Below the pieces are notes generated by a model. The model saw only the letters and a list, made by a program, of their open reading frames with translations. It made no database searches and had not been told where the DNA came from. From Acidobacteriaceae bacterium (GTDB lineage: Bacteria > Acidobacteriota > Terriglobia > Terriglobales > Acidobacteriaceae), in contig JASHRH010000167.1 of the NCBI GenBank assembly GCA_030037475.1, forward strand, positions 1 to 63,784: 63,784 nucleotides of DNA. Direction: 5' to 3'. The translations under genes and the position numbers were made by a program. Positions 11,198 through 25,753 of this stretch are shown piece by piece (position 1 is the first letter of the stretch; each line of letters starts with the position of its first letter).

Positions 11198-12205
11198 CTA
11201 GTAGACCGCAGTAGCATAGATCGACGCCTCTGCCGCTGCCGCCAATATGCCTTGCGTGCTTGTGAAGGTCGATCTGAATTTATTCGTCGGGATGAACAGA
11301 ATATCTTCAGGATGGAGCTGCACGTCTGGAGTCTTTCCTCGGACGATTCTGTTGTACGGTAGCTCAACTTCTGCTACCACGCCATCACGCTCCTTTTGCA
11401 TCACGTAGATCTTTCGCGTAGAGGCAATATAGCTGGTGCCCCCCGCAAGGGCCACCGCCTGCAGGATAGTTAGCGACCCGCTCTCCTGCATGATATAGCC
11501 TCCGGGCCGGTTTACCGCACCCAGTACAAAGACGACGCCAGCGCGTTTCACTTCCACGATATCACCGGGGTCCACGATCGTGTGGTTGGCCACACTCGTG
11601 TCAGCTTGCTTCGAATATGGCACCTCCTCAGTAGCTTCTTTACCGGCCTTATGAGTGATCATGATCTGACTGCCGGCCAGCAAAGTGGTGCCCCCCGCCA
11701 TCGCGAGTACGTCAGCTAGTTTGGTCGGCGCAAGCAGTGGATATTCTCCAGGAGCACCAACCTCACCCATAACGATGACGTGGGGAACTGTATACTCAAG
11801 GACATCTACCTCAACCAGCGGGTTGCGCAGAAGACCATCATCGATAAGTTTCTGTTTGATCGCAATGCGCGCCTCTTCGGCAGTTTCTCCGGCGACGTGC
11901 AGTTGCCCAAGTTGGGGGATATTGATATCTCCGCTCCGATCAACTCGGAAGCTTCCCGAGAAATCCGAATCGTCGGCCACATGTACACCAATGAGAAACC
12001 CGGGGGTGAGCTTCAGCATTTCGAAGTTTTCAGGCAGGGCCGCGGGGCCTGAGTGCAGTCCCATTAACGCATCCGAGTGCGACTTCGGCGTCTCACTGCT
12101 CTGGGTAGTAAGCCTCTGCTGCAGGTCCACTTGGCCTATGGCTTCACTCAGCGGCAGCAAACCGGCCACGCCCGCCAGTACGATCAGTCGAAAGCTCTTA
12201 AACAT
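11198..12205 (-). CDS. wza: Polysaccharide export outer-membrane protein, Wza-like (Poly_export + SLBB domains)
   Basis: Start chosen at MFKSFRLIVLAGVAGLLPLSEAIGQ, which is a signal peptide. ...GDINIPQLGQLHVAGETAEEARIAIKQKL... is Poly_export-like. ...VIVMGEVGAPGEYPL... and ...VFVLGAVNRPGGY... are SLBB-like. The ATG overlaps the wzc stop by 8 nt (ATGTTTAA). Confidence 0.8.
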   Translation of the reverse strand: MFKSFRLIVLAGVAGLLPLSEAIGQVDLQQRLTTQSSETPKSHSDALMGLHSGPAALPENFEMLKLTPGFLIGVHVADDSDFSGSFRVDRSGDINIPQLGQLHVAGETAEEARIAIKQKLIDDGLLRNPLVEVDVLEYTVPHVIVMGEVGAPGEYPLLAPTKLADVLAMAGGTTLLAGSQIMITHKAGKEATEEVPYSKQADTSVANHTIVDPGDIVEVKRAGVVFVLGAVNRPGGYIMQESGSLTILQAVALAGGTSYIASTRKIYVMQKERDGVVAEVELPYNRIVRGKTPDVQLHPEDILFIPTNKFRSTFTSTQGILAAAAEASIYATAVY

Positions 12206-14555
12206 CGGATGACTCCCCGCCTTCGTAGTACGATCCATAGAACTTGTGGCTATATCCATACTCGTAGTCATAGCCGTAAGGGTCCAAGTGCCGCGTAACC
12301 CCATTCAAGAGAAACCCGATTACAGGCATTCTGGCCTGCTCGATCAACCGCATTGCACGCCGGAGCAATGGCCGCGGCGTAAAGCCAGCCCGCGCAATCC
12401 AGATGACAGCGTCCATGTGCGATGCAATGGATGCCGCATCAGTCAGCATCAGAGCCGGGGGACTGTCAATGATAACCACATCGTAATTCGCCCGAAGCAT
12501 CTGCAACAACTCCACGAACGCGACCGACCCGAGAAGCTCCGACGGAAGCGGTGGCCGGGGACCCGCGGGAAGAATATCCAGTCGGTCGACGGCAGCCGAA
12601 TGGATCACCGTATCAGCGAATGTAGAAAGTCCGGAGAGAACACTGCTCAACCCCACATCGTTGGAGACCTCGAGTACATGCCGCATGGTCGGTCGTCGCA
12701 TATCCGCCTCGACAATGATCACTCTCTTTCCATATTGGGCAAAGGTCACTGCAAGGTTGCTTGTGACCGTGCTCTTGCCTTCCCCGGGAAGACAACTAGT
12801 GATGAGCAGAACCCTAGGGCCGCCGTTTGGGCGAGAGAGCAACACCGACGTTCGCAGCGAGCGGAAGGACTCGGTCTGCCCTGAATTAGGATGCGTGAGA
12901 ACTATGAGGCTCGGGTCTTTAAGAGCGGAGCCATCGCCTTCCACCCCTTCTATTCTCGCTTTCGGTCGACGCGAGCCGACCTGACCAGCACGGAGATCCG
13001 GAATGACTCCGAGAACCGGGATTCCAGTAAGCTCCTCCACATCTGTATTGCTGACCACGATATGATGTGCTTTATCGGCTAAGTATACCACGTTGATGCC
13101 CAACAACAAGCCGAGGAGTACAGCCAGCTCAAGGTTGAGGGCGCGGCGTGGGCTGACCGGTGCTCCCTGTGGCCGGGCCGGGTCGACTACTGTAATGTTG
13201 GTTGCCTTAATCCCAGCCACAATATTCGCCTCCTGCAGACGCGTGTACAGGTCTTCGTAGAGCTTTCTGCTCGAGACCGCCTCCTGACTGAGCAAAGCCA
13301 ACTGCACCGTCTTATCGTTAAGTTTGCTTGCCTCGTTCTGCTGTTGTTCAAAGCGGGCACGAATCTGGCTTTCCGTTTGTTGTGCCAGTTCGAGATCGAC
13401 TTTCGCTTGATCCGCAAAACTGCGAAGCTCCTGCAGAATCTGATCATTCACAGTATGGAACTGCAATTCGACATCTTTGAGATGTCGGTTGTTGGGGCCA
13501 TAGACACTGAGTGCTTCCGTCAACTTTTCCTTGAGATCCAGTTTCCGTTGCTGAAGGAACTCCAGATTCTGTAATTCCCCGGAGGAAATCACCGCGCCCG
13601 AACTTATTTCGTTTGATGGGTTGCTCGCCACAGCCAAAAGCGTCTCGATGTTTCCGGATCTTGCCAGCTGGTAAATTGCTTCCTTCTCAATCCGGCTCGT
13701 CTCCGCAGCTGTCAGGTTACTGTTGAGGATGTTCAGCTTCTGTATGACGGGATTGGGCGCTAAAACGCCGCTGGTAGCCTCTGCATCCGGCGCAACGCCC
13801 CCGCCTTGCAGAGTGAGAATGCCGGATGCCTGTTCGAAATCGGTTAGTCTCTTCTCGGATCTCTCGACATTTGTCTTCAGTGTGGTCAGCTGCTGCGCCA
13901 GCCAGTTTGAGGCTTGACTTGTGGCATTGTAACGCGATTGCAGATATTGCGTTTGATAGCTGTCGATTAGCGCGTTGGCAATTCGGGCGGCCTGCTTGGG
14001 ATCCTGGCTCCTGAACGTCACCTGAATCAGGCGCGTGCCTTCAATTGGCGATACAGAGAGATATTTCTCGAAAATGTCAATGAGGCGACTTCGCTGGGCT
14101 GGATCATCCTCCCACGGTGGTAGCGGTTTGTCGTCCTTTCGGCGTGCCACCAGAAACGGGGACTGTGAAGCAAGGTTTAGCTTTCGCAGGACATCGATTG
14201 CCAGAGAATCGCTCTTCAGGATTGAGATCTCCGTCTTCAGGTCGGTGGTTAACGCCGGCCCAACCGAACCGACATCATCGCCCATCATGGCATCAAGGCC
14301 CAGACTGCTAGGGCCGTTATCACGGTTCAGCTCAATGGTTGCGGTTGCCTCGTACATCGGCGTCGAAATCGTATTGACCATCAAAGCCAGTACGATGCAG
14401 CACGCAATCACCCCGACGAACAACCATCGCCGCCGCATCATCACACGGACAACACTGCGTAGGTCCTGCGATTGCGGCTCCCACTGCTTCCGCTGAACCT
14501 TAAAACCGGCTCCTGGGTATTCATCGAGAGGAGAAAGTACTTGATTGCTCAACAC
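12198..14555 (-). CDS. wzc: Polysaccharide co-polymerase / BY-tyrosine kinase, Wzc/GumC-like (PCP-2a)
   Basis: N-terminal Wzz-type TM segment is followed by a long coiled-coil periplasmic region and a second TM. The C-terminal P-loop kinase has Walker A SCLPGEGKST and the DSPP motif VIIDSPPAL. The tail is Tyr-rich: DPYGYDYEYGYSHKFYGSYYEGG. GTG start. Confidence 0.85.
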   Translation of the reverse strand: MLSNQVLSPLDEYPGAGFKVQRKQWEPQSQDLRSVVRVMMRRRWLFVGVIACCIVLALMVNTISTPMYEATATIELNRDNGPSSLGLDAMMGDDVGSVGPALTTDLKTEISILKSDSLAIDVLRKLNLASQSPFLVARRKDDKPLPPWEDDPAQRSRLIDIFEKYLSVSPIEGTRLIQVTFRSQDPKQAARIANALIDSYQTQYLQSRYNATSQASNWLAQQLTTLKTNVERSEKRLTDFEQASGILTLQGGGVAPDAEATSGVLAPNPVIQKLNILNSNLTAAETSRIEKEAIYQLARSGNIETLLAVASNPSNEISSGAVISSGELQNLEFLQQRKLDLKEKLTEALSVYGPNNRHLKDVELQFHTVNDQILQELRSFADQAKVDLELAQQTESQIRARFEQQQNEASKLNDKTVQLALLSQEAVSSRKLYEDLYTRLQEANIVAGIKATNITVVDPARPQGAPVSPRRALNLELAVLLGLLLGINVVYLADKAHHIVVSNTDVEELTGIPVLGVIPDLRAGQVGSRRPKARIEGVEGDGSALKDPSLIVLTHPNSGQTESFRSLRTSVLLSRPNGGPRVLLITSCLPGEGKSTVTSNLAVTFAQYGKRVIIVEADMRRPTMRHVLEVSNDVGLSSVLSGLSTFADTVIHSAAVDRLDILPAGPRPPLPSELLGSVAFVELLQMLRANYDVVIIDSPPALMLTDAASIASHMDAVIWIARAGFTPRPLLRRAMRLIEQARMPVIGFLLNGVTRHLDPYGYDYEYGYSHKFYGSYYEGGESSDV

Positions 14556-14567
14556 ATCACCCTTTTA

Positions 14568-15836
14568 TTATCGTTGCGTGATCAAACTGCATGCGCGCAA
14601 GTTGTCGTCTTCCTGTTGATCTTGACTTGCAGAGCTCAGAGGAACCGTAGCGGCCCGGGCAGCAGTCTCACAAAGCGCCTGTGCCGCATAGTTGATTTGT
14701 TCGACTGCAAGTGTTGGATGCACCTGCAGCATGATCGCTGTTTCGCCAAGCTCCCGTGCCACTGAGAGCCGCGTGGCGGGCCGCCATTGTTTCGGGAACG
14801 CCTGTTCCAGATAGATCTCACCGCAGCTCCCCGTGAAACACGGTACACCGCGGGCATTTACCTCCGCTACTATGCGATCGCGGCTCCAACCGGTACAGAG
14901 TTCCTCCGGTCTTACGAAGACATAGTATTTATAGCAAGAGTGACCGATATCCGGCGGAGGAATGGTAACACGCAACCCCGGTACCGTAGCCAGTGCAGTG
15001 TTGAGAATCCCCGCGTGCTTACGTCTTCTTTCAACCCACCTCGGTAACTTGCGTAGCTGGATGCGACCGATTGCCGCCTGTATCTCAGTCATACGCCAGT
15101 TGGTGCCGAACGACTCATGCAGCCAGCGAAAACCAGGCGCATGGTCTCTACGGTAAACTGCATCATAGCTCTTGCCGTGATCTTTCAGTCCCCATGCCCG
15201 CTCATACAGATTTTCGGAGTTGAGCGTGAGTATGCCACCTTCGCCTCCCGTCGTCATGATCTTATCTTGGCAAAATGAAAATGCCGCCATGTCGCCGAGC
15301 GAGCCCACCGGCCGACCTTTGTACGTCGCGCCATGCGACTGCGCACAATCCTCGATTACGAACACATTGCGAGAACGGCCCAGCTCGAGAATTGAATCCA
15401 TATCGCATGGCCATCCCGCCAAGTGCACCGCGACAATCGCCTTGGTGCGCGGCGTCATCACGCGCGCGATACTCTCGGCTGTGATGTTCTGGCTCTCCCG
15501 GTCGATGTCTGCCATGACGGGCCTTGCACCAACCATGACAGCGCAACTTGCCGAGGCAACAAATGTGCGAGGAGTTGTGATTACTTCGTCGCCTGGTCCC
15601 ACGCCCAAGGTCCGCAGAGCGAGTTCCAGCGCCACGGTTCCGTTTGCCACAGCCACCGCATACTTGCAGCCGGCCGCGCGAGCAAACTCTTTTTCGAATT
15701 CCCTGCCTTCTTCGCCAGTCCAGTAATTAACCTTGCCCGATTTCAGGACTCGGGTCGCGGCTTCGATTTCATCGGGGGCAAAATATGGCCAAGGCGCGTC
15801 AGCCACACCAGGCTGAGCGGGCTTTTGTGCGTTCAT
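14568..15836 (-). CDS. DegT/DnrJ/EryC1/StrS-family PLP-dependent sugar aminotransferase
   Basis: ...YFAPDEIEAATRVLKSGKVNYWTGEEGREFEKEFA... is present. ...AAFSFCQDKIMTTGGEGG... is the PLP-lysine region. ATG start. Confidence 0.9.
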   Translation of the reverse strand: MNAQKPAQPGVADAPWPYFAPDEIEAATRVLKSGKVNYWTGEEGREFEKEFARAAGCKYAVAVANGTVALELALRTLGVGPGDEVITTPRTFVASASCAVMVGARPVMADIDRESQNITAESIARVMTPRTKAIVAVHLAGWPCDMDSILELGRSRNVFVIEDCAQSHGATYKGRPVGSLGDMAAFSFCQDKIMTTGGEGGILTLNSENLYERAWGLKDHGKSYDAVYRRDHAPGFRWLHESFGTNWRMTEIQAAIGRIQLRKLPRWVERRRKHAGILNTALATVPGLRVTIPPPDIGHSCYKYYVFVRPEELCTGWSRDRIVAEVNARGVPCFTGSCGEIYLEQAFPKQWRPATRLSVARELGETAIMLQVHPTLAVEQINYAAQALCETAARAATVPLSSASQDQQEDDNLRACSLITQR

Positions 15837-15880
15837 AAACTCTCTCTGTACACGATTTCAGAAGACGCCCGCTGCGCACG

Positions 15881-16987
15881 TCACTCTTTCTTGGCTGCTT
15901 CCGTCGGGATGGCACCCATGCACTCTAACCACGAGCGATGGAAGTGAATAATACGAATTTCCTCATCGCTGAGCATACCGACACTGTTTGTCTGCCCGAC
16001 AGCGCGCTGCACCGATTCGCATACGACCTGATCCTCAATCAGTACCTTACGGTTGAAGTCGCAGGCAGCCTCATGCAAAATGCCCATCATCATGGGCTTT
16101 ATTTTGGCTCCTGGATCCGGTTCACGATGAAACAGATGGCTTACTAGACGAGTACGATCCAAAGCCAGAGGATCGAGACGCTGCACGCTGTAAACGATGC
16201 CATGCGATGTTGACATGAGAAATGCTGGAAAGATATGGAGGTGATAGTAGCCCTTAGTGTGAACCGGACGCGCATCGAACGAGGCCAGGAAGTCATGGTT
16301 TTTGCGATCCTGTCTATCGAATGGACTGTCGGCGTGAGAATGCATACCGTGGAGTCCATAATCGCCGAAAGTCAAGCCCAGCTTGGCGAATGTCTCCGCG
16401 TGAACGAATCCAATGTGGTAACCCTCAAGGGTGTTCTCGACTACGATCTTCCAGTTACAGGCCAATTCCATCTCAAACCGGCCGATTTCCCGACCCATAT
16501 TGTCGGTCATTGTCTCGAGAATGGAAAAGTACTCACCCATCCACTCGCGCAAAGACGGGCCCGACTCTTTCACACGTATGAAGACTAGACGGCCACATTG
16601 CTCCAACGCGACAGACTGCAAAGCAAGACCACAGATAACTTCCGGTGAAAGATTCTCGAATTTCGGGCGCGCCGGAATCCCTGTCGGAACCCCCGCGCTA
16701 TCATAGGTCCAGCCATGATAGGGACAGCGAAATGGCCCATTGCCTCTAGGCTCGCAGTGAATTTGACTGAACCGGTGTGAGCAGACGTTGACAAACGCGC
16801 GCAACTGGCCCTTGAAATTCCGGATCAATACTGATTTACGCCCTGCTGGCACCACGACGTAGTCATTATCCGCCGCCAGATCGTCGAGAACACACGCGAA
16901 TCTCCAACTTCTCTCAAACAAGAGTTCCTCCTCGCTGGCGAATAAGCCCGAATCGCAGTAGCCTTTTGCCGAAATCAGCCCTTTCAT
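15881..16987 (-). CDS. Rieske [2Fe-2S] non-heme-iron oxygenase, alpha-subunit type (no beta subunit or reductase nearby)
   Basis: Rieske motif CSHRFSQIHCEPRGNGPFRCPYHGW (C-x-H-x16-C-x2-H). Mononuclear-iron motif NTLEGYHIGFVH (H-x4-H). Start set at MKGLISAKGY because its ATG forms an ATGA overlap with the upstream KAS III stop (16984-16987). The longest ORF form starts at 17014. Confidence 0.85.
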   Translation of the reverse strand: MKGLISAKGYCDSGLFASEEELLFERSWRFACVLDDLAADNDYVVVPAGRKSVLIRNFKGQLRAFVNVCSHRFSQIHCEPRGNGPFRCPYHGWTYDSAGVPTGIPARPKFENLSPEVICGLALQSVALEQCGRLVFIRVKESGPSLREWMGEYFSILETMTDNMGREIGRFEMELACNWKIVVENTLEGYHIGFVHAETFAKLGLTFGDYGLHGMHSHADSPFDRQDRKNHDFLASFDARPVHTKGYYHLHIFPAFLMSTSHGIVYSVQRLDPLALDRTRLVSHLFHREPDPGAKIKPMMMGILHEAACDFNRKVLIEDQVVCESVQRAVGQTNSVGMLSDEEIRIIHFHRSWLECMGAIPTEAAKKE

Positions 16988-18009
16988 TGATATTTCCTGA
17001 ACACGTTGCTCCACTCAAGCATGCATGCGCCCCACGAGTAGCCAACGCCAAAGCCGACCAGCATAGCCAGATCTCCGTCACGCATGCGGTCAGCGGCGGC
17101 CTGAAGCGTGATAGGAATCGTATTGCTCACGGTGTTCCCAACCTCCTCGACGAACAACGGTGCCCTACCTTCTGGTATTTTCAGAGCATTGCACAGCTTT
17201 CCATTCATGAATGCATTAGCCTGATGAAAAATAAACCAATTAATGCAGTCCATTGTGGTTTCGGATTTGGCAATGAGAGCCCTGACCACCTCCGGCACTC
17301 TCTTAAGGGTAAACGCAAACACCTCCTGACCATTCATCCAAAGATTCTCTTCCGAGCGCATGCATCCCTGATCGTCGACTCTCTCTTCCCGAGTTAGCGC
17401 GCTTCGGGGCTTTCGCGCTGCGCCAGATGGCACAATCAAATTGTTAAAACCACTGCCGTCAGTACCCAGAACAAAGTCCCCTATTATTGAACCAGGCCCC
17501 TCAGCACCAATCAGCGTAGCGCTTCCGGCGTCCCCAAAAAGTACTCGAACACTACGATCACGAGGATGGATGAATTTGCTGTATGTTTCTCCGGTCAACA
17601 GCAGAACGTTCTTAGCCATTCCGGCCCTGATCATCGACTTGGCGATAAACAAGCCATAGACATAACCAGAGCAGCCCTGGTTAAAGTCAAGCGCCGCACA
17701 GGATGTTGGAAGACCCAGGCGATCCTGTAGTACGCAGGCAGTGGCCGGAAGAAAGTAGTCCGGGCTCTGAGTGCAAAATAGCAAAACGTCGATACGGCGA
17801 GGGAGATCGCTGCCCGCTAACAGCTTCTCAGCAGCAGCGAAGGCCAAATCCGACGCCGTTTCATCTTCTTTCGCGATTCGTCGGTTCCGAATTCCAATCT
17901 TCCGGGTTAAGCGATCCAGGTCCCAGTCTAAGTTTTCACGAGCGAGTTGTTCGTTCGTAAGTCGCCCTTGCGGTAGATGAACGGCTATTCGCTTCAAGTA
18001 GACGTTCAT
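16984..18009 (-). CDS. 3-oxoacyl-ACP synthase III (FabH-like, KAS III) paralog 1
   Basis: The Cys-His-Asn triad contexts are intact: NQGCSGYVYG, FIFHQAN and VGNTVSNTIP. ATG start 6 nt after the ACP stop. Confidence 0.85.
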   Translation of the reverse strand: MNVYLKRIAVHLPQGRLTNEQLARENLDWDLDRLTRKIGIRNRRIAKEDETASDLAFAAAEKLLAGSDLPRRIDVLLFCTQSPDYFLPATACVLQDRLGLPTSCAALDFNQGCSGYVYGLFIAKSMIRAGMAKNVLLLTGETYSKFIHPRDRSVRVLFGDAGSATLIGAEGPGSIIGDFVLGTDGSGFNNLIVPSGAARKPRSALTREERVDDQGCMRSEENLWMNGQEVFAFTLKRVPEVVRALIAKSETTMDCINWFIFHQANAFMNGKLCNALKIPEGRAPLFVEEVGNTVSNTIPITLQAAADRMRDGDLAMLVGFGVGYSWGACMLEWSNVFRKYQ

Positions 18010-18015
18010 TCCAGT

Positions 18016-18255
18016 TTAGGAAATAACCATCGCCCTAGAACGGATGTGTTCGATTAGCTCTTCCACCGTCACAAAGGAACGAATTTTTCGAGGTTCCAAT
18101 TGAAGGGCGTACCTCTCATCGAGAAGAGACATGATGGTAAGCCAAACGAGCGAGTTCCATTCGGGAATGCTTGCGATGGTCGTCTCCGGAACAATGTCCG
18201 CGGGATTGACCTCAAGAGCCTCGGCAATAAGCTCTATAAGTTCGTCGGTTGTCAT
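18016..18255 (-). CDS. Acyl carrier protein (phosphopantetheine-binding)
   Basis: 79 aa and acidic. The putative attachment serine lies in ...IPEWNSLVWLTIMSLL..., an N-S-L variant of the DSL motif. The start is preceded by TTTAGGAGATCGT-ATG, an AGGAG Shine-Dalgarno sequence that overlaps the upstream TAG stop. Confidence 0.75.
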   Translation of the reverse strand: MTTDELIELIAEALEVNPADIVPETTIASIPEWNSLVWLTIMSLLDERYALQLEPRKIRSFVTVEELIEHIRSRAMVIS

Positions 18256-18263
18256 ACGATCTC

Positions 18264-18923
18264 CTAAAAGTAGAAACTCTTTCCTGGAACTCCAATGATG
18301 GTGCTTCCAGCTTTTACATTGCGAAGCGCGACACTACCGGCACCGATAATCGCAAAGGCGCCGACTCTCACCCCCGGACATACAACTGCGTGACTGCCCA
18401 TGTAAACCCCGCGTTCGAGGTAGGTGTTTCCAGTGATATCGCAGAATGCATTTAACGTACAGCCGTCCTCAAGTATCGAATCGTGTCCAATTCCGACGAA
18501 AGAGTTGAGCGCATTGTGATTGCCGATCTTTGAGTTCGCGCTGAGTCCTGTGGAACGCAAAAGGATGTTTCCTTTTCCCATGGTACTGGTCTCGTATTGC
18601 CAAGATGTTGGATCAATAACATTCGTAAACTGGCCTCCTCGGCTACATATTAGGTCACACAATTTTAGCTTTATTTTGGGTGTACCTACAGCACAGATAA
18701 ATCGATCCTGATCTTGCGGCTGGTAATCCTGAATGCTACTCAAAACCGGCTCGCCATACCCCTTAATGCTCAACTCACGTCGGGCCTGATCGGTATTGTC
18801 ATCTAGAAATCCACCGACGTCCCATAATGAAACGGAATGCCGCTCTATGAGACGCACCGTTCCCAGCACTTCTCTGCCGAATCCTCCGGCCCCAATAATG
18901 AGCAACCGCGGTCGGCTCAACAA
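18264..18923 (-). CDS. NeuD/PglD/PglB-family sugar N-acyltransferase (N-terminal Rossmann-like + left-handed beta-helix)
   Basis: ...RLLIIGAGGFGREVL... is the NeuD-type N-terminal domain. Hexapeptide repeats follow, with ...FVGIGHDSILEDGCTLNAF... carrying a His equivalent to the catalytic His of PglD. TTG start overlaps the upstream SDR stop. Confidence 0.8.
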   Translation of the reverse strand: MLSRPRLLIIGAGGFGREVLGTVRLIERHSVSLWDVGGFLDDNTDQARRELSIKGYGEPVLSSIQDYQPQDQDRFICAVGTPKIKLKLCDLICSRGGQFTNVIDPTSWQYETSTMGKGNILLRSTGLSANSKIGNHNALNSFVGIGHDSILEDGCTLNAFCDITGNTYLERGVYMGSHAVVCPGVRVGAFAIIGAGSVALRNVKAGSTIIGVPGKSFYF

Positions 18924-19675
18924 AGCAGGCCGCCGTCAATCACCAGGTTTGCCCCCGTGATGGCGCGCGCTGCGTTACTCAATAGAAATGCAGCGGCGGT
19001 TGCAATATCCAAGGCGGACGGAAGACCTAGAAAATGCTGACTTATGAGCGTATCTACTGTCTCTCCCAGGTTTCGTCCCCGCTCTGTCATGTTCGTACCC
19101 GATATGTAGGTCGGCGAAAGAGCATTCACCCGGATCCGACGCGCCGCCAGCTCCTTTGTAGCACTCAGGATCATGGCGTTCAGCGCCCCCTTAGAAGCAG
19201 AGTAGACAACGAGTCCCGGATTTCCGAAGATCGATGCGATGGATGACAGCATCACAACTGATGCCCATTCGGAAGAGACAAATTTGCTGCTCATGCCCCG
19301 CATTAGTGCAAACGCGGCATAGAGGTTCGGAACCATGATCTCGTCGATATGGCGCCGGGATATGACCCGCAACGGAGCAGTACTCCCTACGCCAGCGGAG
19401 TGCACTAAGCCATCCAAGGTCGCTCCCGCGCCTGAGCACACTGCTTTCATCCACGCGGGAATCGCATCGATATCAGAGAGATCGAAGGGCGCGATGATAT
19501 GGCTGCTAGATGAGCCCATCATCTGCCGAGTTTCATCCAAAGCTTCCTTCCGGCGGCCGCTGAGAATTACACGCGCTCCCAACTGGTCGAAGAGGATGGA
19601 TGCAGCCCGACCGATACCTGAAGAGGCGCCGGTAACGAGGACGAGCTTGCCTGTAAGGTCCAAGGGGTTATCCAC
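18917..19675 (-). CDS. Short-chain dehydrogenase/reductase, FabG-like 3-oxoacyl reductase
   Basis: Cofactor motif VTGASSGIGRA and catalytic YSASKGAL (Y-x3-K). GTG start overlaps the upstream KAS III stop by 8 nt. Confidence 0.85.
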   Translation of the reverse strand: MDNPLDLTGKLVLVTGASSGIGRAASILFDQLGARVILSGRRKEALDETRQMMGSSSSHIIAPFDLSDIDAIPAWMKAVCSGAGATLDGLVHSAGVGSTAPLRVISRRHIDEIMVPNLYAAFALMRGMSSKFVSSEWASVVMLSSIASIFGNPGLVVYSASKGALNAMILSATKELAARRIRVNALSPTYISGTNMTERGRNLGETVDTLISQHFLGLPSALDIATAAAFLLSNAARAITGANLVIDGGLLC

Positions 19676-20759
19676 TCGCAGGCGCTCCGATCTGGATGAT
19701 TTTGGCTACCTGTAGAGATCGCAGAGTACCTGCCATCGCACCCCAAGAATAGCCAACTCCAAATCCGGCAAGTACAGTCTTTGTCGCAGCCTCTGACTTC
19801 AGACGGGCGGCTACTTCGTCGGCGATCAGAAGGCCGATGGTCGAAACTGATGTGTTTCCGAACTTTGCGATATTTCCCGGCACGCGGTCCAAGGGTAACT
19901 TTAACCGTTTGGCGATTGCTTTGACGATGAAATCATTAGCTTGGTGAAGCAGGTAAAGGTCTACTTCCTCTCTATTCCAAGCGTGCAGTTTCAGGACACC
20001 ATCGATTAACGGTGGAACACGCTGCAGCGCAAAATTGAAGATGGCCAGTCCATCCATGTGAACCTGCATTCGTGTGCGTACATTGCCCTCAGGATCAACG
20101 ATTTTCTCACAGGCTTTCACAGACGCCGGTTCACGAAAGGCGCCCGCCGGCACGATCAGATTGTCGGCTCCGGATCCGTCCGTGCCCAGCAAAAAGGACC
20201 ATTCCTCCGCACTCTCGTCGAACTCAACTGCAGTCGCGGTTCCAGCGTCGCCGAATAGCGCGGCGACACCTCGATCTTCCCACGATGACATCACGCTCGG
20301 CGTATCGCCGGCCAGCAGCAGAAAGCGCCTGCAGGCCCCGGAGGAGATGAAATTCGCGGCGAGGAAAAGACCATAGATATACCCGGAACACCCCATGCCG
20401 ACGTCGAACGCCAGCACATTGTTAGGCAAGCAAAGCTTTTCCTGTGCGATGCAGGCGGTCGCAGGACAAAAGTGATCAGGATTCTGCGTTACCATCACCA
20501 CACCGTCGATTGAAGAGCGCTCCCACACGAGGTCAGTCAGTAGCGCATCGGCTGCTGCTATGGAGAGGTCGCCCGCCGTTTGTCCGGGTTGTACTCGATG
20601 GAGGGTGCGCACGCCTGCACTGGCAGAAAGCTTCTTTAGATCTTCGGCGCTGAAAGGTGAAGGAACATCGCTGATATCGAGCGGAAGGCCGGGAACGGCC
20701 CCAACGACCCCGCGAATAGCGACACCTCTGTATTTGCCGGCTGCCAAAGACTCCTCCAA
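19668..20759 (-). CDS. 3-oxoacyl-ACP synthase III (FabH-like, KAS III) paralog 2
   Basis: Triad contexts are DVGMGCSGYIYG, LLHQAN and FGNTSVSTIG. The apparent TTG start lies 4 nt after the AcpS stop. The exact start is uncertain by a few codons. Confidence 0.8.
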   Translation of the reverse strand: MEESLAAGKYRGVAIRGVVGAVPGLPLDISDVPSPFSAEDLKKLSASAGVRTLHRVQPGQTAGDLSIAAADALLTDLVWERSSIDGVVMVTQNPDHFCPATACIAQEKLCLPNNVLAFDVGMGCSGYIYGLFLAANFISSGACRRFLLLAGDTPSVMSSWEDRGVAALFGDAGTATAVEFDESAEEWSFLLGTDGSGADNLIVPAGAFREPASVKACEKIVDPEGNVRTRMQVHMDGLAIFNFALQRVPPLIDGVLKLHAWNREEVDLYLLHQANDFIVKAIAKRLKLPLDRVPGNIAKFGNTSVSTIGLLIADEVAARLKSEAATKTVLAGFGVGYSWGAMAGTLRSLQVAKIIQIGAPASG

Positions 20760-20763
20760 AAAG

Positions 20764-21144
20764 CTACTGCATCAGCACGACAGCCATCGCAAGCTCGTTC
20801 TCGTGAGTTATCGATGCCGAGAGGCAGGTACAACCCTGCTCCCTAGCAAACTCTTCCATGGTACCCAGTAATCGAACTATGGGTTGACCTTCTCTATTGG
20901 GAAGGCACTCAATTTCAGACAACCGGAACCCATTGTCAATTCCCCTGCCCATTGCCTTCAGCAGGGCTTCCTTAACGGCGAAGCGGCCGGCGAGAAACTC
21001 ACTTCTACGTCGATGAGCCACAAGCTGGTCAGCATGGACCAACTCTGCAGGGGAAAAAATCTTTTCCGCAAATGTCACGGAGCGACTCATCTTTCTCTCC
21101 AGACGTCCCACTTCGACGACATCGATACCAATACGCAAATGCAT
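20764..21144 (-). CDS. acpS: Holo-ACP synthase (AcpS-type 4'-phosphopantetheinyl transferase)
   Basis: 126 aa. MHLRIGIDVVEVGRLERKM..., ...FLAGRFAVKEALLKAMG... and ...SITHENELAMAVVL together form the classic AcpS pattern. Confidence 0.85.
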   Translation of the reverse strand: MHLRIGIDVVEVGRLERKMSRSVTFAEKIFSPAELVHADQLVAHRRRSEFLAGRFAVKEALLKAMGRGIDNGFRLSEIECLPNREGQPIVRLLGTMEEFAREQGCTCLSASITHENELAMAVVLMQ

Positions 21145-21202
21145 TGTGCTCCTAAGAATTCTGTCGATGAAGCGCCCCGATTACGCTTCCATAGTGGGAT
21201 CA

Positions 21203-21832
21203 TTAATCACGGACTGCCCTCTCGGGGTTGAATTCAGGCATACTGACATGATTCCTGTTTGAAATCTCTCGAGCGGCCAAGGCCTTCGGAATGGTGAGCA
21301 GCAGAATCTTCACATCGAGCCAGAAGCTCCAATTGTCAACGTACCAGACGTCCAGTGCGAACTTCTCTTCCCACTCAATAGCGTTCCGGCCGTTAACCTG
21401 GGCCCAGCCGGTCAGGCCCGGCTTCACCAAGAGTCGCCGCGCCTGCGCTGGCGAGTAGCGCGCAACGTATTCTGCGAGTAATGGGCGGGGACCGACAAGA
21501 CTCATTTCTCCGCGCAGCACATTGATGAATTGCGGCAACTCGTCCAGGCTAGTTGCCCGGAGCAACCTCCCAACTCCATGCAGGCGGTCTGCATCGGGCA
21601 GCAGCGCGCCAGTCGCGTTATGCTCATCGGTCATGGTCTTGAATTTCAGAATTGTGAATAATCGCCCGTTCATACCGGGGCGCTCCTGGTAGAAGAATAC
21701 CGGCGTACCCAGCCAGATCCTAACCGTCAAAAACGTGAGCACAAACACCGGCGAAACAATCACTAGCGCGACCGCACTAACGCAGAGGTCTAATACTCGT
21801 TTCGAGGCATTAGCTAGTCTCTTCACCTGCAA
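21203..21832 (-). CDS. Small monotopic phosphoglycosyl transferase (bacterial sugar transferase, PglC/WbaP-C-terminal type), initiating enzyme
   Basis: 209 aa with one N-terminal hydrophobic helix. ...SLDELPQFINVLRGEMSLVGPRP... and ...KPGLTGWAQVNGRN... are the Bac_transf signatures. Confidence 0.9.
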   Translation of the reverse strand: MQVKRLANASKRVLDLCVSAVALVIVSPVFVLTFLTVRIWLGTPVFFYQERPGMNGRLFTILKFKTMTDEHNATGALLPDADRLHGVGRLLRATSLDELPQFINVLRGEMSLVGPRPLLAEYVARYSPAQARRLLVKPGLTGWAQVNGRNAIEWEEKFALDVWYVDNWSFWLDVKILLLTIPKALAAREISNRNHVSMPEFNPERAVRD

Positions 21833-21922
21833 CTCCTTGCCGATATCACATCTCGTGTCGCCAAGTCTGGTTTCGTACCGCCGCCAGCGAAGCAGTTGTC
21901 GCTGGCGAGTAATACCCCTGCT

Positions 21923-23470
21923 CTAGCCGCCCAGCGCCACTTCTGCCTGGCTTGAATGGCGTAACACCTCCTGAATCCAGCGCTGCTGCGCGATGCGCAG
22001 CGATGCCGGCCCAATCTCCTCAGACAGGAATCGTACATTGCTATAGCGCGGATCTTTGTAGTTAGTCACTCTGCCACTCGTTATTGCTCCAAGCACCTGC
22101 TGAACTCCCATTTCCAGCGTCCACTCCGGATGAAACCGAAGGGAACGTCGTATGCGATCGAAATTCACCCTGTAATTTCTTCGATCCACGTCTTTCTCGA
22201 AGAACTGCAGTTCAGCGTCCGGCACCATGCTCTGAATGAGTCGGCCAACGTCCCCAAGAGTGTAATTTTGCTCATCTGAACCAACATTGAATATAGTTTC
22301 AGCGACAGCACCGTCCGAGGCGCGGCACGCCAGGTATACAGCCAAAGCCGCATCGTTCACATGTAGGAACGGCCGCCATTGGTCACTTCCATAAACTGTT
22401 ATCAGACCGTCCACAATCGCCTTGGCGGAGAGCAGATTCACGACTAGGTCAAAACGGGTGCGCCCGGAGAGACCATAGATGGTTCCGAATCGCAAAATTA
22501 CCGGCTGGAAATCTGTGCTCATCATGGCCAGCAACATGTTCTCGCAGGCGATCTTGCTGCGAGCATAAAGTGAGACCGGATTTAGTTTCGATTTTTCGTC
22601 CAAGTACTCGTCGCTGGCGCCATAGACGGAGCATGTGCTCGCGAAGATAAACCGTTTGATCCCTTGCCCTTTCGTAACTTCGGCGATCATACGCGTAGCC
22701 AGCAGGTTGGTTTCAACCGTGAGTTCTTCATCCAGCGCGCAGGCGGGGTCACCTACTATAGCACCCAAATGAACGACCGCGTTGATACCCTGCATCGCCT
22801 GCACAACCACATCGACACGGCGGAAATCCGCCTTTACGATTTGCAGATTCGGATGGTTGATCCACTCTTGGATGGGCTCGCTCCCATAAAGGAAGACATC
22901 GAGAAGCCGAACCACGTAGTTACTGTTTAGAAGACGCGGCAGCAAGCTGGAACCGATGTAACCAGCACCACCGATCAGAAGGATGGTTTTCGAAGGCGTG
23001 GAGAGAGAGAAGTTGGTTTCAGAAGTTGCACCGCTCATTTCGATCCGGTTAACATGCCCCCAGACGACAGCCCACAGACGCGCTAGAAGCAGGCCCGCCG
23101 CTGTCAGGCCCCAAGACAGCACAAGAGCCGGCCTGCCGATTCGACCGACCCAGGGAATCACAAATTCGGCGAATCCAAACAAGAGGAACGCAAGCGCAGA
23201 CGCCTGAAGCACAACTAAAGCCTTATAGTGGCTGGCATATGCTCGTCCCCGCGTATAGAAGCCCATGAGAGCAAAAACAGCAATTCCAATGATGGAAAGC
23301 GCCCAGAAACTGCCTAGAAATGGTCTGAGAATCGTGTTACTGGGGCGTCCGACGAGCAAGATGAAGCAATTGTTCAACAGGAGAGCACTGAAAAGCGCTG
23401 CATTCACGATCACGAGATCGGCCAACACTCGTACGGCTGCATTCTTGGGCACAATAGTCTTCCGCGCCAT
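21923..23470 (-). CDS. Membrane-anchored NAD-dependent nucleotide-sugar epimerase/dehydratase (extended SDR)
   Basis: About 160 aa of N-terminal hydrophobic helices (VRVLADLVIVNAALFSALLL...) resemble the CapD/PglF/WbpM anchor. They are followed by ILLIGGAGYIGSSL (Rossmann) and ...ASTCSVYG...SLYARSKIACE (S/T-Y-x3-K), a GalE-like catalytic core. Confidence 0.75.
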   Translation of the reverse strand: MARKTIVPKNAAVRVLADLVIVNAALFSALLLNNCFILLVGRPSNTILRPFLGSFWALSIIGIAVFALMGFYTRGRAYASHYKALVVLQASALAFLLFGFAEFVIPWVGRIGRPALVLSWGLTAAGLLLARLWAVVWGHVNRIEMSGATSETNFSLSTPSKTILLIGGAGYIGSSLLPRLLNSNYVVRLLDVFLYGSEPIQEWINHPNLQIVKADFRRVDVVVQAMQGINAVVHLGAIVGDPACALDEELTVETNLLATRMIAEVTKGQGIKRFIFASTCSVYGASDEYLDEKSKLNPVSLYARSKIACENMLLAMMSTDFQPVILRFGTIYGLSGRTRFDLVVNLLSAKAIVDGLITVYGSDQWRPFLHVNDAALAVYLACRASDGAVAETIFNVGSDEQNYTLGDVGRLIQSMVPDAELQFFEKDVDRRNYRVNFDRIRRSLRFHPEWTLEMGVQQVLGAITSGRVTNYKDPRYSNVRFLSEEIGPASLRIAQQRWIQEVLRHSSQAEVALGG

Positions 23471-23593
23471 CTTACACCTCTAGCTAACCTACGGATTACA
23501 GCTAATTGGTTTGCATAAACCGGTGAGACTTCCTGGGCTGGATTCAAAACATCCGAAAGCAGAACGGACAGGACCAGCAGAACAAAGCGCCGT

Positions 23594-24946
23594 TCAGCAG
23601 CGAACAATATTGCTCGACCTGATTCCCCTCATCGCGTTACGGGTGTCCACCACCAAGCGAGCGTCCCGGGCGATTCGACCGTAATCGTAAGTAGAATGGT
23701 CAGTGACAACCAGAACGCAATCATAACGGTGCAGATCGTCGAGCGCGGCACGAACCATGTTCAAGTCGTAATGGCGTCCTCGGCCGACATGCGGGAAATA
23801 CGGGTCGTGATAGGAGACGGCGGCGCCGTATTGCCGCAGCAGTTCGATGATGATCAGCGAGGGCGACTCACGCAGGTCGTCGATATCCCTCTTGTAAGCC
23901 ACCCCAAGTATCAAGATCTCGGAGCCTTTCAGCGGCTTGTTCCGAGCGTTCAAAGCCTCAGCTGTTTTCTCGACAACGTAATACGGCATCTGGACGTTTA
24001 CCTCGCCGGCCAACTCGATGAATTTCGTGCGAAAGTCGTACTGCTTCGCTTTCCAAGAGAGATAAAAAGGGTCAACGGGTATACAATGACCGCCCAAGCC
24101 CGGGCCAGGGTAGAACGCCTGGAACCCGAAAGGTTTGGTCTTCGCTGCTTCGATTACCTCAAAGACGTCAATCCCCATGCGATGGCAGAGTTGCTTGAGC
24201 TCGTTCACCAAAGCAATGTTGACGCACCGATAGATGTTCTCGAGCAACTTGGTCATTTCCGCCGCCGCCGGCGAGGACACTGGAACCGTGCGGTTGAAAA
24301 TGCTGCCGTAGAGCGCCTGAGCCAACTCGCTCGAAACTGGACCGACGCCGCCGACAACCTTCGGAATGTCACACCGCTCTACGGTGTCGTTGCTCGGATC
24401 TTCGCGCTCCGGCGAAAACGCCACATAAAAGCCTGCCGGTCCATCACCGGCAGGCCGCTCCGCCCGCAGAGCTCCGTGATTCCCTGCTTCGAGCAGTGGA
24501 ATCAATACCTCTTCGGTCGTGCCCGGATAGGTTGTGCTCTCAAGCACCACAAGCTGGCCTTCCCGCAGGTGCGGCGCGATCGCCTGTGCTGTATCCCTGA
24601 TGTAGCTCAGGTCGGGCTGATGAAACTCGTCGAGTGGCGTAGGAACACAGATGATCAACACGTCCAGTTCTTCTATCAATGCAAAGTCTGTCGTAGATGA
24701 GAATCCATGTTGGCGCGCCCACTGAATTTCTTCAGCCCCTATCCGGACGATGTAGGATCTGCCTAAGTTCAGGCTTTCCACCTTCTTTTCGTCAATATCG
24801 AAGCCGATAACGGGAAACTGCTGTCCACTGAAAAGTAGCGCAAGCGGCAGGCCGACATACCCCATACCGAATATCCCGAGGCGCGCGGTTCGCGCATCAA
24901 TTTTTCCCCGAATCCGACGCAAATTGCTCACAGAAATCGTAGTCAT
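23594..24946 (-). CDS. Nucleotide-sugar 6-dehydrogenase (UDP-glucose/GDP-mannose dehydrogenase family; WbpA/WecC/Cap5O-like)
   Basis: ...LGIFGMGYVGLPLALLF... is the NAD-binding site. ...GPGLGGHCIPVDPFYL... contains the catalytic Cys. Start set at MTTISV (24946), preceded by AGGGGTAACA. The longest ORF starts at 25012. Confidence 0.9.
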   Translation of the reverse strand: MTTISVSNLRRIRGKIDARTARLGIFGMGYVGLPLALLFSGQQFPVIGFDIDEKKVESLNLGRSYIVRIGAEEIQWARQHGFSSTTDFALIEELDVLIICVPTPLDEFHQPDLSYIRDTAQAIAPHLREGQLVVLESTTYPGTTEEVLIPLLEAGNHGALRAERPAGDGPAGFYVAFSPEREDPSNDTVERCDIPKVVGGVGPVSSELAQALYGSIFNRTVPVSSPAAAEMTKLLENIYRCVNIALVNELKQLCHRMGIDVFEVIEAAKTKPFGFQAFYPGPGLGGHCIPVDPFYLSWKAKQYDFRTKFIELAGEVNVQMPYYVVEKTAEALNARNKPLKGSEILILGVAYKRDIDDLRESPSLIIIELLRQYGAAVSYHDPYFPHVGRGRHYDLNMVRAALDDLHRYDCVLVVTDHSTYDYGRIARDARLVVDTRNAMRGIRSSNIVRC

Positions 24947-25044
24947 TGTTACCCCTGTTCTTCTGAAGATCCTGACCAACCTCGCCGAACCAGATTCGCC
25001 GTATTGCCCCACTTCCCTTTGAACGAGATCTCTCTGTGTCGTTT

Positions 25045-25647
25045 CTAGGCTGAAATCATCGATGACTCACTAGGATGTTGCAGACATGAGAGCAGCGTGA
25101 TCGGCTCCCCGAGCAAACGCTCCATTGACGATTCAAATGCCACTATCGCAGCGACCAATAGAACCATATCTCTCAAGGAGGAAAACGGTAGGTCATCGCC
25201 ACCAATGTGAGGCTGCAGATGACCTGCAAGCAAGTCAGTGAATTCCAGAACCTTGCTCCTCAGGACCGGCACCATAGCCGGCGACATTTCAAGTGCACCG
25301 AATTGAATCAGACGCAGTAACTCGCGCTTTGGTTCAAGAGCTTCCCAAATGAACTTCCATCCATGCCCAATCGCGTCGACTCTGGTCGACGCCGACCTCA
25401 GTCGGGCAAGTATCTCTTCCGAAACCTCTATGGATTCCAAACCCGATTCGATTACTGCGCAGTACAACCCGTGCTTGGAGCCATAGCGGCGGTAGATCGT
25501 CACTTCATTCACCTGAGCTTCACAGGCGATTTGCCGCGTTTTGGTTCCGCGATATCCAAATCGCGCAAAGAGTCCCGTCGCCGCGTTCAGGATTCGCCTT
25601 TCCAGCTCGCTCTGCTCTGCGAGTTTGGCGCGCTTCATGAAATACAT
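25045..25647 (-). CDS. TetR/AcrR-family transcriptional regulator
   Basis: N-terminal HTH: ...RILNAATGLFARFGYRGTKTRQIACEAQVNEVTIYRRYGSKHGLY... It is the first gene at the 5' end of the minus-strand polysaccharide block. Confidence 0.85.
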   Translation of the reverse strand: MYFMKRAKLAEQSELERRILNAATGLFARFGYRGTKTRQIACEAQVNEVTIYRRYGSKHGLYCAVIESGLESIEVSEEILARLRSASTRVDAIGHGWKFIWEALEPKRELLRLIQFGALEMSPAMVPVLRSKVLEFTDLLAGHLQPHIGGDDLPFSSLRDMVLLVAAIVAFESSMERLLGEPITLLSCLQHPSESSMISA

Positions 25648-25753
25648 AATGCAGACCTAACCTCTATCAAAGTCGACACCATGTGTGCTGTACCACTATT
25701 TGTCAACGAGAGGACATAAGCAAGGCTTCGCCATGCTTACCTGGATGAAGGTT

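Follow-up and report, generated by a model that had tools for sequence, protein, structure and literature searches.

What does a block of fatty-acid-synthase-like genes make in the middle of an exopolysaccharide locus? The question is raised by a 63,784-nucleotide (nt) stretch of DNA from an Acidobacteriaceae bacterium (contig JASHRH010000167.1 of assembly GCA_030037475.1), which is referred to here as the window; coordinates count from its position 1. Between 15881 and 21144, seven genes encode an AcpS-type holo-ACP synthase (ACP, acyl carrier protein), a 3-oxoacyl-ACP synthase III (KAS III-2), a FabG-like ketoreductase of the short-chain dehydrogenase/reductase (SDR) type, a left-handed beta-helix N-acyltransferase of the NeuD/PglD type, a dedicated ACP, a second 3-oxoacyl-ACP synthase III (KAS III-1) and a Rieske non-haem iron oxygenase that consists of the alpha subunit only. 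We consider it probable that this cassette is a Rieske- and AcpS-bearing variant of the wfpC-G-type acyl module of Flavobacterium psychrophilum, and that it would place a short hydroxylated chain onto an amino sugar.

The genes are packed as one minus-strand block. AcpS (20764-21144, 126 residues), KAS III-2 (19668-20759, 363 residues from a TTG start), the SDR (18917-19675, 252 residues), the acyltransferase (18264-18923, 219 residues), the ACP (18016-18255, 79 residues), KAS III-1 (16984-18009, 341 residues) and the Rieske protein (15881-16987, 368 residues) follow each other with junctions of +4, -8, -7, +8, +6 and -4 nt. The TAG stop codon of the acyltransferase gene lies within tAGGAG, 8 nt ahead of the ATG of the ACP gene, and the last junction is an ATGA overlap between KAS III-1 and the Rieske gene. 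The longest Rieske open reading frame (ORF) begins at a GTG at 17014; we take the ATG at 16987 as the start because the alignment of the homologues in its clade begins there. The starts of KAS III-2 (TTG), the SDR (GTG) and the acyltransferase (TTG) are uncertain, and alternative starts still give junctions within 8 nt. Tight packing by itself is an ordinary operon feature; a neighbourhood that is conserved across phyla is stronger evidence. A promoter and terminator scan of 11000-26500 returned counts at or below the shuffled expectation and is uninformative on operon boundaries.

An earlier description of this DNA, made from the letters alone (the sequence-only reading), had listed the same seven genes and junctions, including the AGGAG over the acyltransferase stop and the ATGA overlap. 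Recomputed coordinates reproduce them, and Pfam and NCBIfam profile searches return the proposed family for each of the seven proteins. The catalytic signatures it described as intact are also in place: the Cys-His-Asn residues of both KAS III copies, the SDR motifs, His147 of the acyltransferase and Ser35 of the ACP. While the composition of the cassette was right, the Rieske protein, its most distinctive part, had been given no role.

The closest known system is the O-polysaccharide locus of F. psychrophilum, which encodes a PglC-like protein (wfpB, 200 residues), a KAS III (wfpC, 333), an ACP (wfpD, 76), a second KAS III (wfpE, 350), a ketoreductase (wfpF, 242) and a PglD homologue (wfpG, 216), plus pglE and pglF (PMC6519341). 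WfpC and WfpE share 33% identity. The glycan carries a (3S,5S)-3,5-dihydroxyhexanoyl group on bacillosamine, a structure established by chemistry in 2001, and wfpB-G were assigned to D-Qui2NAc4N(3,5-dihydroxyhexanoyl) by annotation and glycan chemistry (PMC6519341). Cisar et al. proposed in 2019 that a type II fatty acid synthase (FAS)-like pathway builds the 3,5-dihydroxyhexanoyl chain on the ACP, and that WfpG transfers it to UDP-Qui2NAc4NH2 (UDP, uridine diphosphate) (PMC6519341). The same N-acyl group on the same sugar is also found in Vibrio cholerae O3 and O100.

The window shares with wfpB-G the core parts list, near-identical protein sizes and the proposed logic. It differs by the added Rieske and AcpS genes, by another gene order and by the lack of a detectable PglF-family dehydratase; its host is an acidobacterium with a Wza/Wzc-exported exopolysaccharide, whereas the F. 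psychrophilum product is an O-antigen. The 3,5-dihydroxyhexanoyl group is the product of two condensations and two ketoreductions without dehydration. The F. psychrophilum precedent, with its N-(3,5-dihydroxyhexanoyl)-bacillosamine, therefore lends strong comparative support to the earlier suggestion of a private carrier module that performs one or two condensations and goes no further than the 3-hydroxy stage. The same precedent overturns the claim that the combination is undescribed, as a core of two KAS III, ACP, ketoreductase and PglD homologue had already been proposed with the same mechanism (PMC6519341). The claim holds for the Rieske and cluster-encoded AcpS additions only, and these are what is new relative to the known core.

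No F. psychrophilum record is present among the best 80 loci of our genome scan, described below, and homology to it was judged through the cassette of Flavobacterium sp. CF136, which has near-identical gene order and protein sizes, plus a Rieske gene. Identities between the window and CF136 are 52% for the PglC-like phosphoglycosyl transferase (PGT), 43% for KAS III-1 (to the first KAS III), 39% for the Rieske protein, 35% for the SDR and 30% for the NeuD-type acyltransferase. All protein matches are significant apart from that of the ACP, which is weak.

The genome scan covered one genome per species and found at least 523 acyltransferase relatives among 600 stretches examined; the best 80 loci were analysed. 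Of these, 53 have at least 4 kb on either side of the acyltransferase gene (full-flank loci), and features were counted within 7 kb of that gene. At least one KAS III is present in 39 of the 53 loci, a detected ACP in 35, two KAS III in 13, a Rieske gene in 6 and AcpS in 2. The best 80 loci come from Acidobacteriota, Planctomycetota, Verrucomicrobiota, Gemmatimonadota, Firmicutes, Chloroflexota, Desulfobacterota and Proteobacteria, and the closest acyltransferase relatives among the matches listed belong to Acidobacteriota and Terriglobia genomes. This neighbourhood comparison finds KAS III, ACP and NeuD-type genes together across many phyla, and a five-gene core (two KAS III, ACP, ketoreductase and the PglD/NeuD-type gene) recurs across many phyla together with a PglC-like PGT and a sugar aminotransferase. 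An ENA metagenome contig (L002 in our numbering of loci) has the order PGT-AcpS-KAS-SDR-NeuD-ACP-KAS-DegT, which is the window order minus the Rieske gene, and an acidobacterial genome (L007) has the same order as L002. The module genes are present in shuffled order in a JGI contig and in Candidatus Electronema.

Nearly all of the 13 full-flank loci with two KAS III lie near glycan genes; one of them (L014) contains GT4, AsnB and Wzx genes. In a Vicinamibacterales locus (L027, 9995-13738), a complete five-gene NeuD-ACP-KAS-SDR-KAS module has no glycan genes within 10 kb, its neighbours being FG-GAP and reprolysin-like proteins, a cation efflux protein and an asparaginase. Four-gene modules with one KAS III (ACP, KAS III, SDR and NeuD-type gene) from Planctomycetaceae and Opitutales are often found outside glycan loci. 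The examples, which have housekeeping genes such as ClpB and AccC around them, are L015 (6847-10666) and L042 (7748-10627), and also L013, L034, L038, L043, L050, L054, L055, L080 and L084. A PIG-L-family de-N-acetylase gene lies directly upstream of the module in L015, which suggests a route in which some GlcNAc-containing molecule (GlcNAc, N-acetylglucosamine) would be deacetylated and then reacylated. The association with sugar genes assumed in the sequence-only reading thus stands for the full cassette, which is not regularly found away from them, and does not extend to every member of the family. Judged from its neighbourhoods, the module family forms a unit complete in itself, which is not always accompanied by sugar genes.

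The part that sets the window apart from the known core, together with AcpS, is the Rieske protein (Pfam Rieske and Ring_hydroxyl_A). Across 37 clade members there is no variation at the Rieske ligands C69, H71, C88 and H91 or at the iron ligands H191, H196 and D319, and the AlphaFold model of the window protein (predicted local distance difference test score of 93.5) is a confident canonical alpha subunit. A Foldseek search with the model gives template-modelling scores of 0.72-0.80 to TPADO alpha and to the alpha-only enzymes CntA and stachydrine demethylase (Stc2); these are generic alpha-subunit matches that provide no substrate clue. The protein reaches none of the NCBIfam equivalog models (GbcA, CntA-like, anthranilate/benzoate dioxygenase and others), the best score being 84.7 bits against a cut-off of 670. 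Its clade is small, with about 37 clusters at E <1e-49, followed by a drop to generic "choline monooxygenase" relatives.

The neighbourhoods of the clade are more informative than its structural relatives. All 12 other clade members with an examined neighbourhood are located in or at an acyl module, and they cover at least six phyla. A Rieske gene lies within 7 kb of the acyltransferase gene in 8 of the 80 genome loci (L014, L016, L025, L040, L067, L072, L074 and L076), and four further clade contigs (L087-L090) all carry it in or beside the module. In Flavobacterium sp. CF136 (L087, contig AKJZ01000007.1), the order is PGT-KAS-ACP-KAS-Rieske-SDR-PglD-DegT, with the Rieske gene between KAS III and the SDR. 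It is located between ACP and KAS III in the cultured Pseudomonas lundensis L1802 (L025, contig NZ_NQKI01000006.1), and next to a PglD-like gene and an SDR-KAS-ACP-KAS set in a JGI contig (L088). Two other contigs contain Rieske genes in multiple copies: L089 has a NeuB-type nonulosonic acid synthase, KAS III, three tandem Rieske genes (3005-6405) and an SDR, while the two Rieske genes of L090 (9001-11298) are accompanied by ACP, KAS III, a PglD-like gene and a pair of SDRs. The tandem paralogues suggest that several oxidations may take place, and that the same chemistry may be applied to other amino sugars.

The most likely role of the window enzyme is hydroxylation of the acyl chain, since the Rieske gene is embedded in the acyl module elsewhere, is ATGA-coupled to KAS III-1 and stays linked to the module where the sugar context has changed. 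We propose more tentatively, as a reading with not quite an even chance, that the whole clade tailors short, carrier-built N-acyl chains of glycans in at least six phyla, and that the window exopolysaccharide would carry a more oxygenated group, for example of the trihydroxyhexanoyl type. In the literature searched, we found neither a more oxygenated group of the trihydroxyhexanoyl type nor a description of a Rieske enzyme in O-antigen acyl tailoring, and searches on other oxygenated C5/C6 N-acyl groups and on the combination of ACP, N-acyltransferase and bacillosamine returned nothing relevant.

The Rieske protein might instead modify the sugar or another part of the repeat, or be a passenger gene, leaving a plain 3,5-dihydroxyhexanoyl group. 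We regard this as unlikely, though it is the alternative that survives best. The most similar syntenic loci, L002 and L007, have the module without a Rieske gene, so the module works without it; a partner reductase gene was not found nearby; and the structural neighbours CntA and stachydrine demethylase act on small free molecules. However, where the Rieske gene is found elsewhere it lies inside the acyl module (between ACP and KAS III in L025, between KAS III and SDR in CF136) and not beside the sugar genes. It accompanies KAS III, SDR and acyltransferase genes under a different sugar context, such as NeuB in L089, and in the window its translation is coupled to that of KAS III-1 by the ATGA overlap. 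The conservation of all metal ligands also speaks against this alternative.

The chain that would be hydroxylated depends on the two condensing enzymes, both of which match Pfam ACP_syn_III and ACP_syn_III_C. Alignment to E. coli FabH shows that both retain the Cys-His-Asn triad. The two copies are 40% identical to each other, and their best solved structures are 3GWA from Burkholderia pseudomallei for KAS III-1 (E 1e-97) and 4EFI from Burkholderia for KAS III-2 (E 3e-71). These entries are uncharacterised structural-genomics representatives of what we term the K1 and K2 types, a typing based on percent identity to the two window copies. Neither copy reaches the housekeeping FabH model TIGR00747 (227.1 and 170.1 bits against a cut-off of 292.1), and by these scores the pair are specialised paralogues, distinct from housekeeping FabH. 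The triad is kept in 85 of 89 aligned sequences (88 KAS III from the loci and E. coli FabH). Two-KAS loci usually combine one K1-type and one K2-type enzyme, both with Cys-His-Asn, the exception being Chthoniobacter-type loci.

In the Chthoniobacter-type loci, the second KAS III-like copy does not have the triad and contains TQS, SAS or GQS instead (L060, 2335-3438; L072, 7762-8859; L074, 7750-8850; L076, 7744-8844). A Rieske gene is present in L072, L074 and L076; L060 has only a fragment, at the contig end. The triad-less copy may be a non-catalytic partner or an enzyme with another activity.

The other chain-building proteins are also recognisable. The SDR (Pfam adh_short, adh_short_C2 and KR) contains the motifs TGASSGIG and YSASK, and its top NCBIfam matches are FabG and related SDR models, all under their cut-offs. 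The ACP matches Pfam PP-binding with 30.2 bits and the housekeeping AcpP model TIGR00517 with 22.9 bits against a cut-off of 70. Its Ser35, within the motif NSL, aligns with Ser36 of AcpP, and a serine is found at this position in 62 of 62 sequences (61 module ACPs and AcpP), identifying Ser35 as the predicted phosphopantetheine attachment site.

Enzymes that would carry the chain beyond the 3-hydroxy stage appear to be missing. We compared about 50 window ORFs of at least 180 residues, one or more per locus, with Pfam; shorter ORFs outside the cassette and several overlapping ORFs on the opposite strand were left out. None of them matches FabD, FabZ/FabA, an enoyl reductase or KAS I/II, which agrees with the absence of dehydratase, enoyl reductase, KAS I/II and malonyl transacylase claimed in the sequence-only reading. 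With no dehydratase or enoyl reductase, each round of synthesis would therefore leave a hydroxyl group. A FabH-type KAS III would elongate the hydroxyacyl intermediate without the help of KAS I/II.

A shorter, C4 product is conceivable. One KAS III would condense acetyl and malonyl units to give 3-hydroxybutanoyl, the other would serve as an acyl-CoA:ACP transacylase or loader (CoA, coenzyme A), and the Rieske enzyme would hydroxylate the C4 chain. KAS III-like enzymes acting as acyltransferases are known, and 3-hydroxybutanoyl is the commonest non-acetyl N-acyl group of bacterial glycans; in the literature it is frequent on QuiNAc4N. A single KAS III is found in 26 of the 39 cassette loci with full flanks, indicating that one condensation is common in the family. 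The window, however, has the full condensing triad in both paralogues, most two-KAS loci pair a K1-type with a K2-type enzyme with intact triads, and the sole two-KAS cassette with a known glycan makes the C6 3,5-dihydroxyhexanoyl group. We consider a C4 product improbable, somewhat more so than a Rieske enzyme that acts away from the chain.

The chain would be passed on by the acyltransferase, which exceeds the Pfam cut-offs of both PglD_N (44.5 against 23.4) and Hexapep (35.9 against 27). Its His147 is invariant in 40 homologues and aligns with a histidine of VioB. Among solved structures the enzyme is closest to VioB, the Acinetobacter hexapeptide transferase 4M9C, PerB, Pcryo_0637 (the acetyltransferase entries 7L7Y-7L82), the Neisseria pilin-glycosylation protein 4M98 and PglD; as far as is known, all of these N-acylate 4-amino sugars. 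More than 1000 relatives are found at 38-50% identity. The gene context argues for an acyl-ACP donor, because 39 of the 53 full-flank loci have KAS III and/or ACP within 7 kb. A clean two-clade split between acyltransferases with and without the ACP/KAS module was considered and rejected. The module-less enzymes form several small clades nested among the module-linked ones, a pattern that suggests repeated module loss or donor switching.

The amine that receives the chain is most likely made by the adjacent DegT-family sugar aminotransferase (14568-15836, minus strand, 422 residues; Pfam DegT_DnrJ_EryC1, 331 bits), whose start lies 44 nt past the Rieske stop. It matches PDB entry 7L7X with 495 bits (E 1.5e-147). 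This entry is deposited merely as a DegT-family aminotransferase; we infer that it is Pcryo_0638, because the neighbouring entries 7L7Y-7L82 are the acetyltransferase and Linehan et al. reported one aminotransferase and four acetyltransferase structures. Pcryo_0638 converts UDP-4-keto-6-deoxy-GlcNAc to UDP-2-acetamido-4-amino-2,4,6-trideoxyglucose, as established by kinetics and crystallography (PMC8040287). The window DegT protein thus most likely provides the acceptor amine by acting as a C4 aminotransferase on UDP-4-keto-6-deoxy-GlcNAc. Its closeness to Pcryo_0638, together with the 4-amino-sugar substrates of the acyltransferase relatives, makes a 4-amino sugar the most likely acceptor, namely the bacillosamine precursor UDP-4-amino-4,6-dideoxy-GlcNAc. 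The earlier proposal that the chain is transferred to a DegT-made amine gains support from this close match to an enzyme whose C4 amination of a UDP-sugar has been characterised.

That DegT belongs to a WbpE-type 3-amino-uronic-acid route was an idea prompted by nearby genes for a UDP-sugar dehydrogenase, a GFO/IDH/MocA oxidoreductase and an AsnB-like protein. We rejected this as the primary reading, as the protein scores 495 bits to Pcryo_0638 and only about 137 to WbpE.

On the opposite side of the cassette, a PglC-type PGT (21203-21832, minus strand, 209 residues; Pfam Bac_transf, 216 bits) presumably puts the acylated sugar phosphate on the lipid carrier; a PGT adjoins the cassette in 32 of the 80 genome loci. 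The next gene encodes a membrane-anchored extended SDR (21923-23470, minus strand, 515 residues). It matches Pfam Epimerase with E 3.8e-41 and Polysacc_synt_2 with just 2e-10, and its best solved relative is 6VO6. With the motifs STCSVYG and YARSK and without the Asp-Glu pair of the dehydratases, the protein falls outside the PglF family. Its N-terminal membrane domain is PglF/WbpM-like and its catalytic domain is a classical epimerase-type SDR. Homologues adjoin DegT in the acidobacterial loci L009 and L029, and for this reason the membrane SDR may supply the keto sugar by an unorthodox route, replacing PglF; it may also be a 4-epimerase. The gene for a PglF-type dehydratase may also lie at another place in the genome, as that of Pcryo_0612 does in Psychrobacter.

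In another alternative, the module would prime a 3-hydroxy fatty acyl chain that the housekeeping FAS extends to a long one; N-linked to the first sugar as a lipid anchor by analogy with LpxD, it would yield a lipidated polysaccharide or a glycolipid in place of a short polar decoration. We consider this very improbable. Although the C-terminal beta-helix of the acyltransferase is weakly similar to LpxA and LpxD, and one-KAS four-gene versions of Planctomycetaceae and Opitutales occur in housekeeping contexts, one of them with the upstream PIG-L gene that recalls LpxC/LpxD logic, the LpxD model gives only 36 bits against a cut-off of 242 with the likeness confined to the hexapeptide region, the private ACP is far from AcpP (22.9 bits against 70), KAS I/II, dehydratase and enoyl reductase were not found among the scanned ORFs, the module is flanked by genes for a PglC-type transferase and a C4 aminotransferase within a Wzx/Wzy/Wza/Wzc locus, and the characterised glycan of the same cassette type has a C6 chain.

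The pathway that we favour, with a short hydroxylated chain on a 4-amino sugar, would begin with the conversion of the private ACP to its holo form by AcpS. Malonyl-ACP would come from a housekeeping malonyl transacylase whose gene lies beyond the window. One initiating and one extending Claisen condensation would fall to the two KAS III paralogues, and the single FabG-like SDR would reduce each 3-oxo group, so that the ACP would end up with a short polyhydroxy chain similar to 3,5-dihydroxyhexanoyl. The Rieske enzyme would add a further oxidation, most likely a hydroxyl, either on the ACP-bound chain or after its transfer to the sugar. The PglD/NeuD-type acyltransferase would then take the chain off the ACP and attach it to the 4-amino group of a UDP-4-amino sugar, most likely the UDP-4-amino-4,6-dideoxy-GlcNAc produced by the adjacent DegT enzyme. 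Finally, the PglC-type PGT would use the N-acylated sugar to start the repeat of a Wzx/Wzy-dependent exopolysaccharide.

Several points weigh against this proposal. The chemical steps, including the chain length and the Rieske substrate, rest on homology and gene context here and on annotation and glycan chemistry in F. psychrophilum, where the role of wfpC-G is still presented in a 2026 preprint as attributed from the genome. Homology to the F. psychrophilum genes is judged only through the CF136 proxy, in which the ACP match covers 47 residues at 23% identity. The acyltransferase scores 155.7 bits with TIGR03570, just below the cut-off of 160.8, and its sequence gives no sign of preferring acyl-ACP over acyl-CoA. 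No Rieske reductase or ferredoxin gene is found in the window locus or in L087-L090, and the Pfam scan of ORFs shows no malonyl transacylase encoded at the locus. No PglF-family 4,6-dehydratase was found in the window, where the membrane SDR with its epimerase-like motifs is the sole candidate, so that the 6-deoxy or other identity of the sugar is uncertain. Some related modules, such as L027, L015 and L042, are also located away from recognisable glycan genes.

AcpS is the other addition to the core. The window protein scores 66.9 bits with Pfam ACPS and passes TIGR00516 (acpS) with 88.2 bits against a cut-off of 59.8, and its presumed task is to load the private ACP with phosphopantetheine. 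Of the loci compared, only L002, L007 and L070 have an AcpS gene linked to the cassette; among the genome loci this makes 2 of 80. The nearest AcpS relatives, at 44-45% identity, are ordinary genes in housekeeping pdxJ-acpS-yjeF contexts, and a specialised clade of cluster AcpS proteins was rejected on these grounds. From these neighbourhoods, the cluster AcpS is an occasional recruitment from ordinary housekeeping AcpS, a rare accessory. It is plausible that it was recruited because the private ACP, with its NSL motif and low AcpP score, is so divergent from AcpP. The "mini-FAS" with its own phosphopantetheinyl transferase envisaged in the sequence-only reading is therefore atypical of the family.

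Other systems share parts of the proposed logic. The bacillosamine pathway (PglF, PglE, PglD and PglC in Campylobacter jejuni; Pcryo_0612, Pcryo_0638 and Pcryo_0637 in Psychrobacter cryohalolentis, PMC8040287) resembles the window in its DegT enzyme, its PglD_N and hexapeptide acyltransferase with a catalytic-position histidine and its small PglC-type PGT. PglD and Pcryo_0637 use acetyl-CoA, whereas the donor of the window enzyme is presumably a hydroxyacyl-ACP, given the ACP/KAS III/ketoreductase context. The pathway also has a PglF dehydratase step, for which the window contains no PglF homologue. LpxA and LpxD are left-handed beta-helix acyltransferases that take 3-hydroxyacyl-ACP, whereas the N-terminal domain of the window enzyme is of the PglD type.

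The rfbK-O genes of V. cholerae O1 make the tetronate N-acyl group of perosamine with a dedicated ACP and a hexapeptide-type acyltransferase. As is proposed for the window, a hydroxylated short N-acyl group is put on a 4-amino sugar, but the chain is made by an acyl-CoA-synthetase-like enzyme, an alcohol dehydrogenase and a LuxE-like enzyme, with no KAS III condensations. None of these three families was found at the window locus in the Pfam scan. In butirosin biosynthesis (BtrI/J/K/O/V/H), a short chain is built on a private ACP, hydroxylated while tethered and moved to the amine of an amino sugar. The handover of an ACP-built chain to an amino sugar is alike, whereas butirosin uses a flavin-dependent hydroxylase, a glutamate-derived chain and an acyltransferase unrelated to the beta-helix family to make an antibiotic, and the window has a Rieske enzyme, a beta-helix acyltransferase and a polysaccharide. 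In eukaryotes, the Rieske protein CMAH (CMP-Neu5Ac hydroxylase) is known to hydroxylate a nucleotide sugar at its N-acetyl group. Both cases would involve a Rieske protein acting on the N-acyl group of an activated sugar, but CMAH has a different catalytic domain, and the window enzyme belongs with the classical bacterial alpha subunits of the Ring_hydroxyl_A type.

The antigenicity and physical properties of bacterial surface polysaccharides depend to a large extent on the N-acyl groups of rare amino sugars, and the enzymology of those larger than acetyl is still almost wholly inferred. Our results indicate that the two-KAS III/ACP/ketoreductase/PglD-like module proposed for a fish pathogen is widespread and mobile, being found in soil Acidobacteriota, Planctomycetota, Verrucomicrobiota, Firmicutes and Proteobacteria, and that a dedicated Rieske clade has been added to it repeatedly. 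One- and two-KAS III versions may correspond to C4 and C6 chains. If the Rieske enzyme does act on the chain, the tailoring of glycans would include a reaction of a new kind; the chemistry is testable in two cultured carriers, Pseudomonas lundensis L1802 and Flavobacterium sp. CF136.

The cassette sits in a long minus-strand exopolysaccharide locus with Wzx, Wzy, Wza and Wzc genes. The upstream part encodes a TetR regulator, a UDP-N-acetyl-sugar dehydrogenase (23594-25012), the membrane-anchored SDR and the small PglC-type PGT, followed by the cassette and DegT. Further along are Wzc, Wza, a fused ADH/GFO-IDH-MocA oxidoreductase, an AsnB-like amidotransferase, a heparinase II/III-like protein, a GT4 glycosyltransferase, Wzy and Wzx. 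The region downstream of Wza (4911-11100, minus strand) contains the fused ADH_zinc_N and GFO/IDH/MocA oxidoreductase (722 residues), the AsnB-like amidotransferase (673 residues), whose nearest model is the XrtA/PEP-CTERM amidotransferase with a score under its cut-off, and the heparinase II/III-like protein (693 residues). Together with the UDP-N-acetyl-sugar dehydrogenase, these genes hint at a second modified sugar in the repeat, possibly an amidated uronic acid.

The G+C content is 52-57% in the polysaccharide locus (window 1-26000) and 60-66% in the rest (28000-63784), with an IS481-family transposase at the boundary (26610-27554). The G+C step and the transposase suggest that the whole polysaccharide locus was acquired horizontally. 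Outside the locus, an ADOP-family duplicated permease is encoded at 43597-46080 on the minus strand (860 bits against a cut-off of 622). Such permeases are characteristic of Acidobacteriota, and together with the closest acyltransferase relatives this one makes an acidobacterial origin of the window very probable. Within the locus, there is an overlap of 107 nt (12198-12304) between Wzc and Wza if the longest ORFs are taken; the true Wza start is probably one of the downstream ATGs, which makes the real junction shorter.

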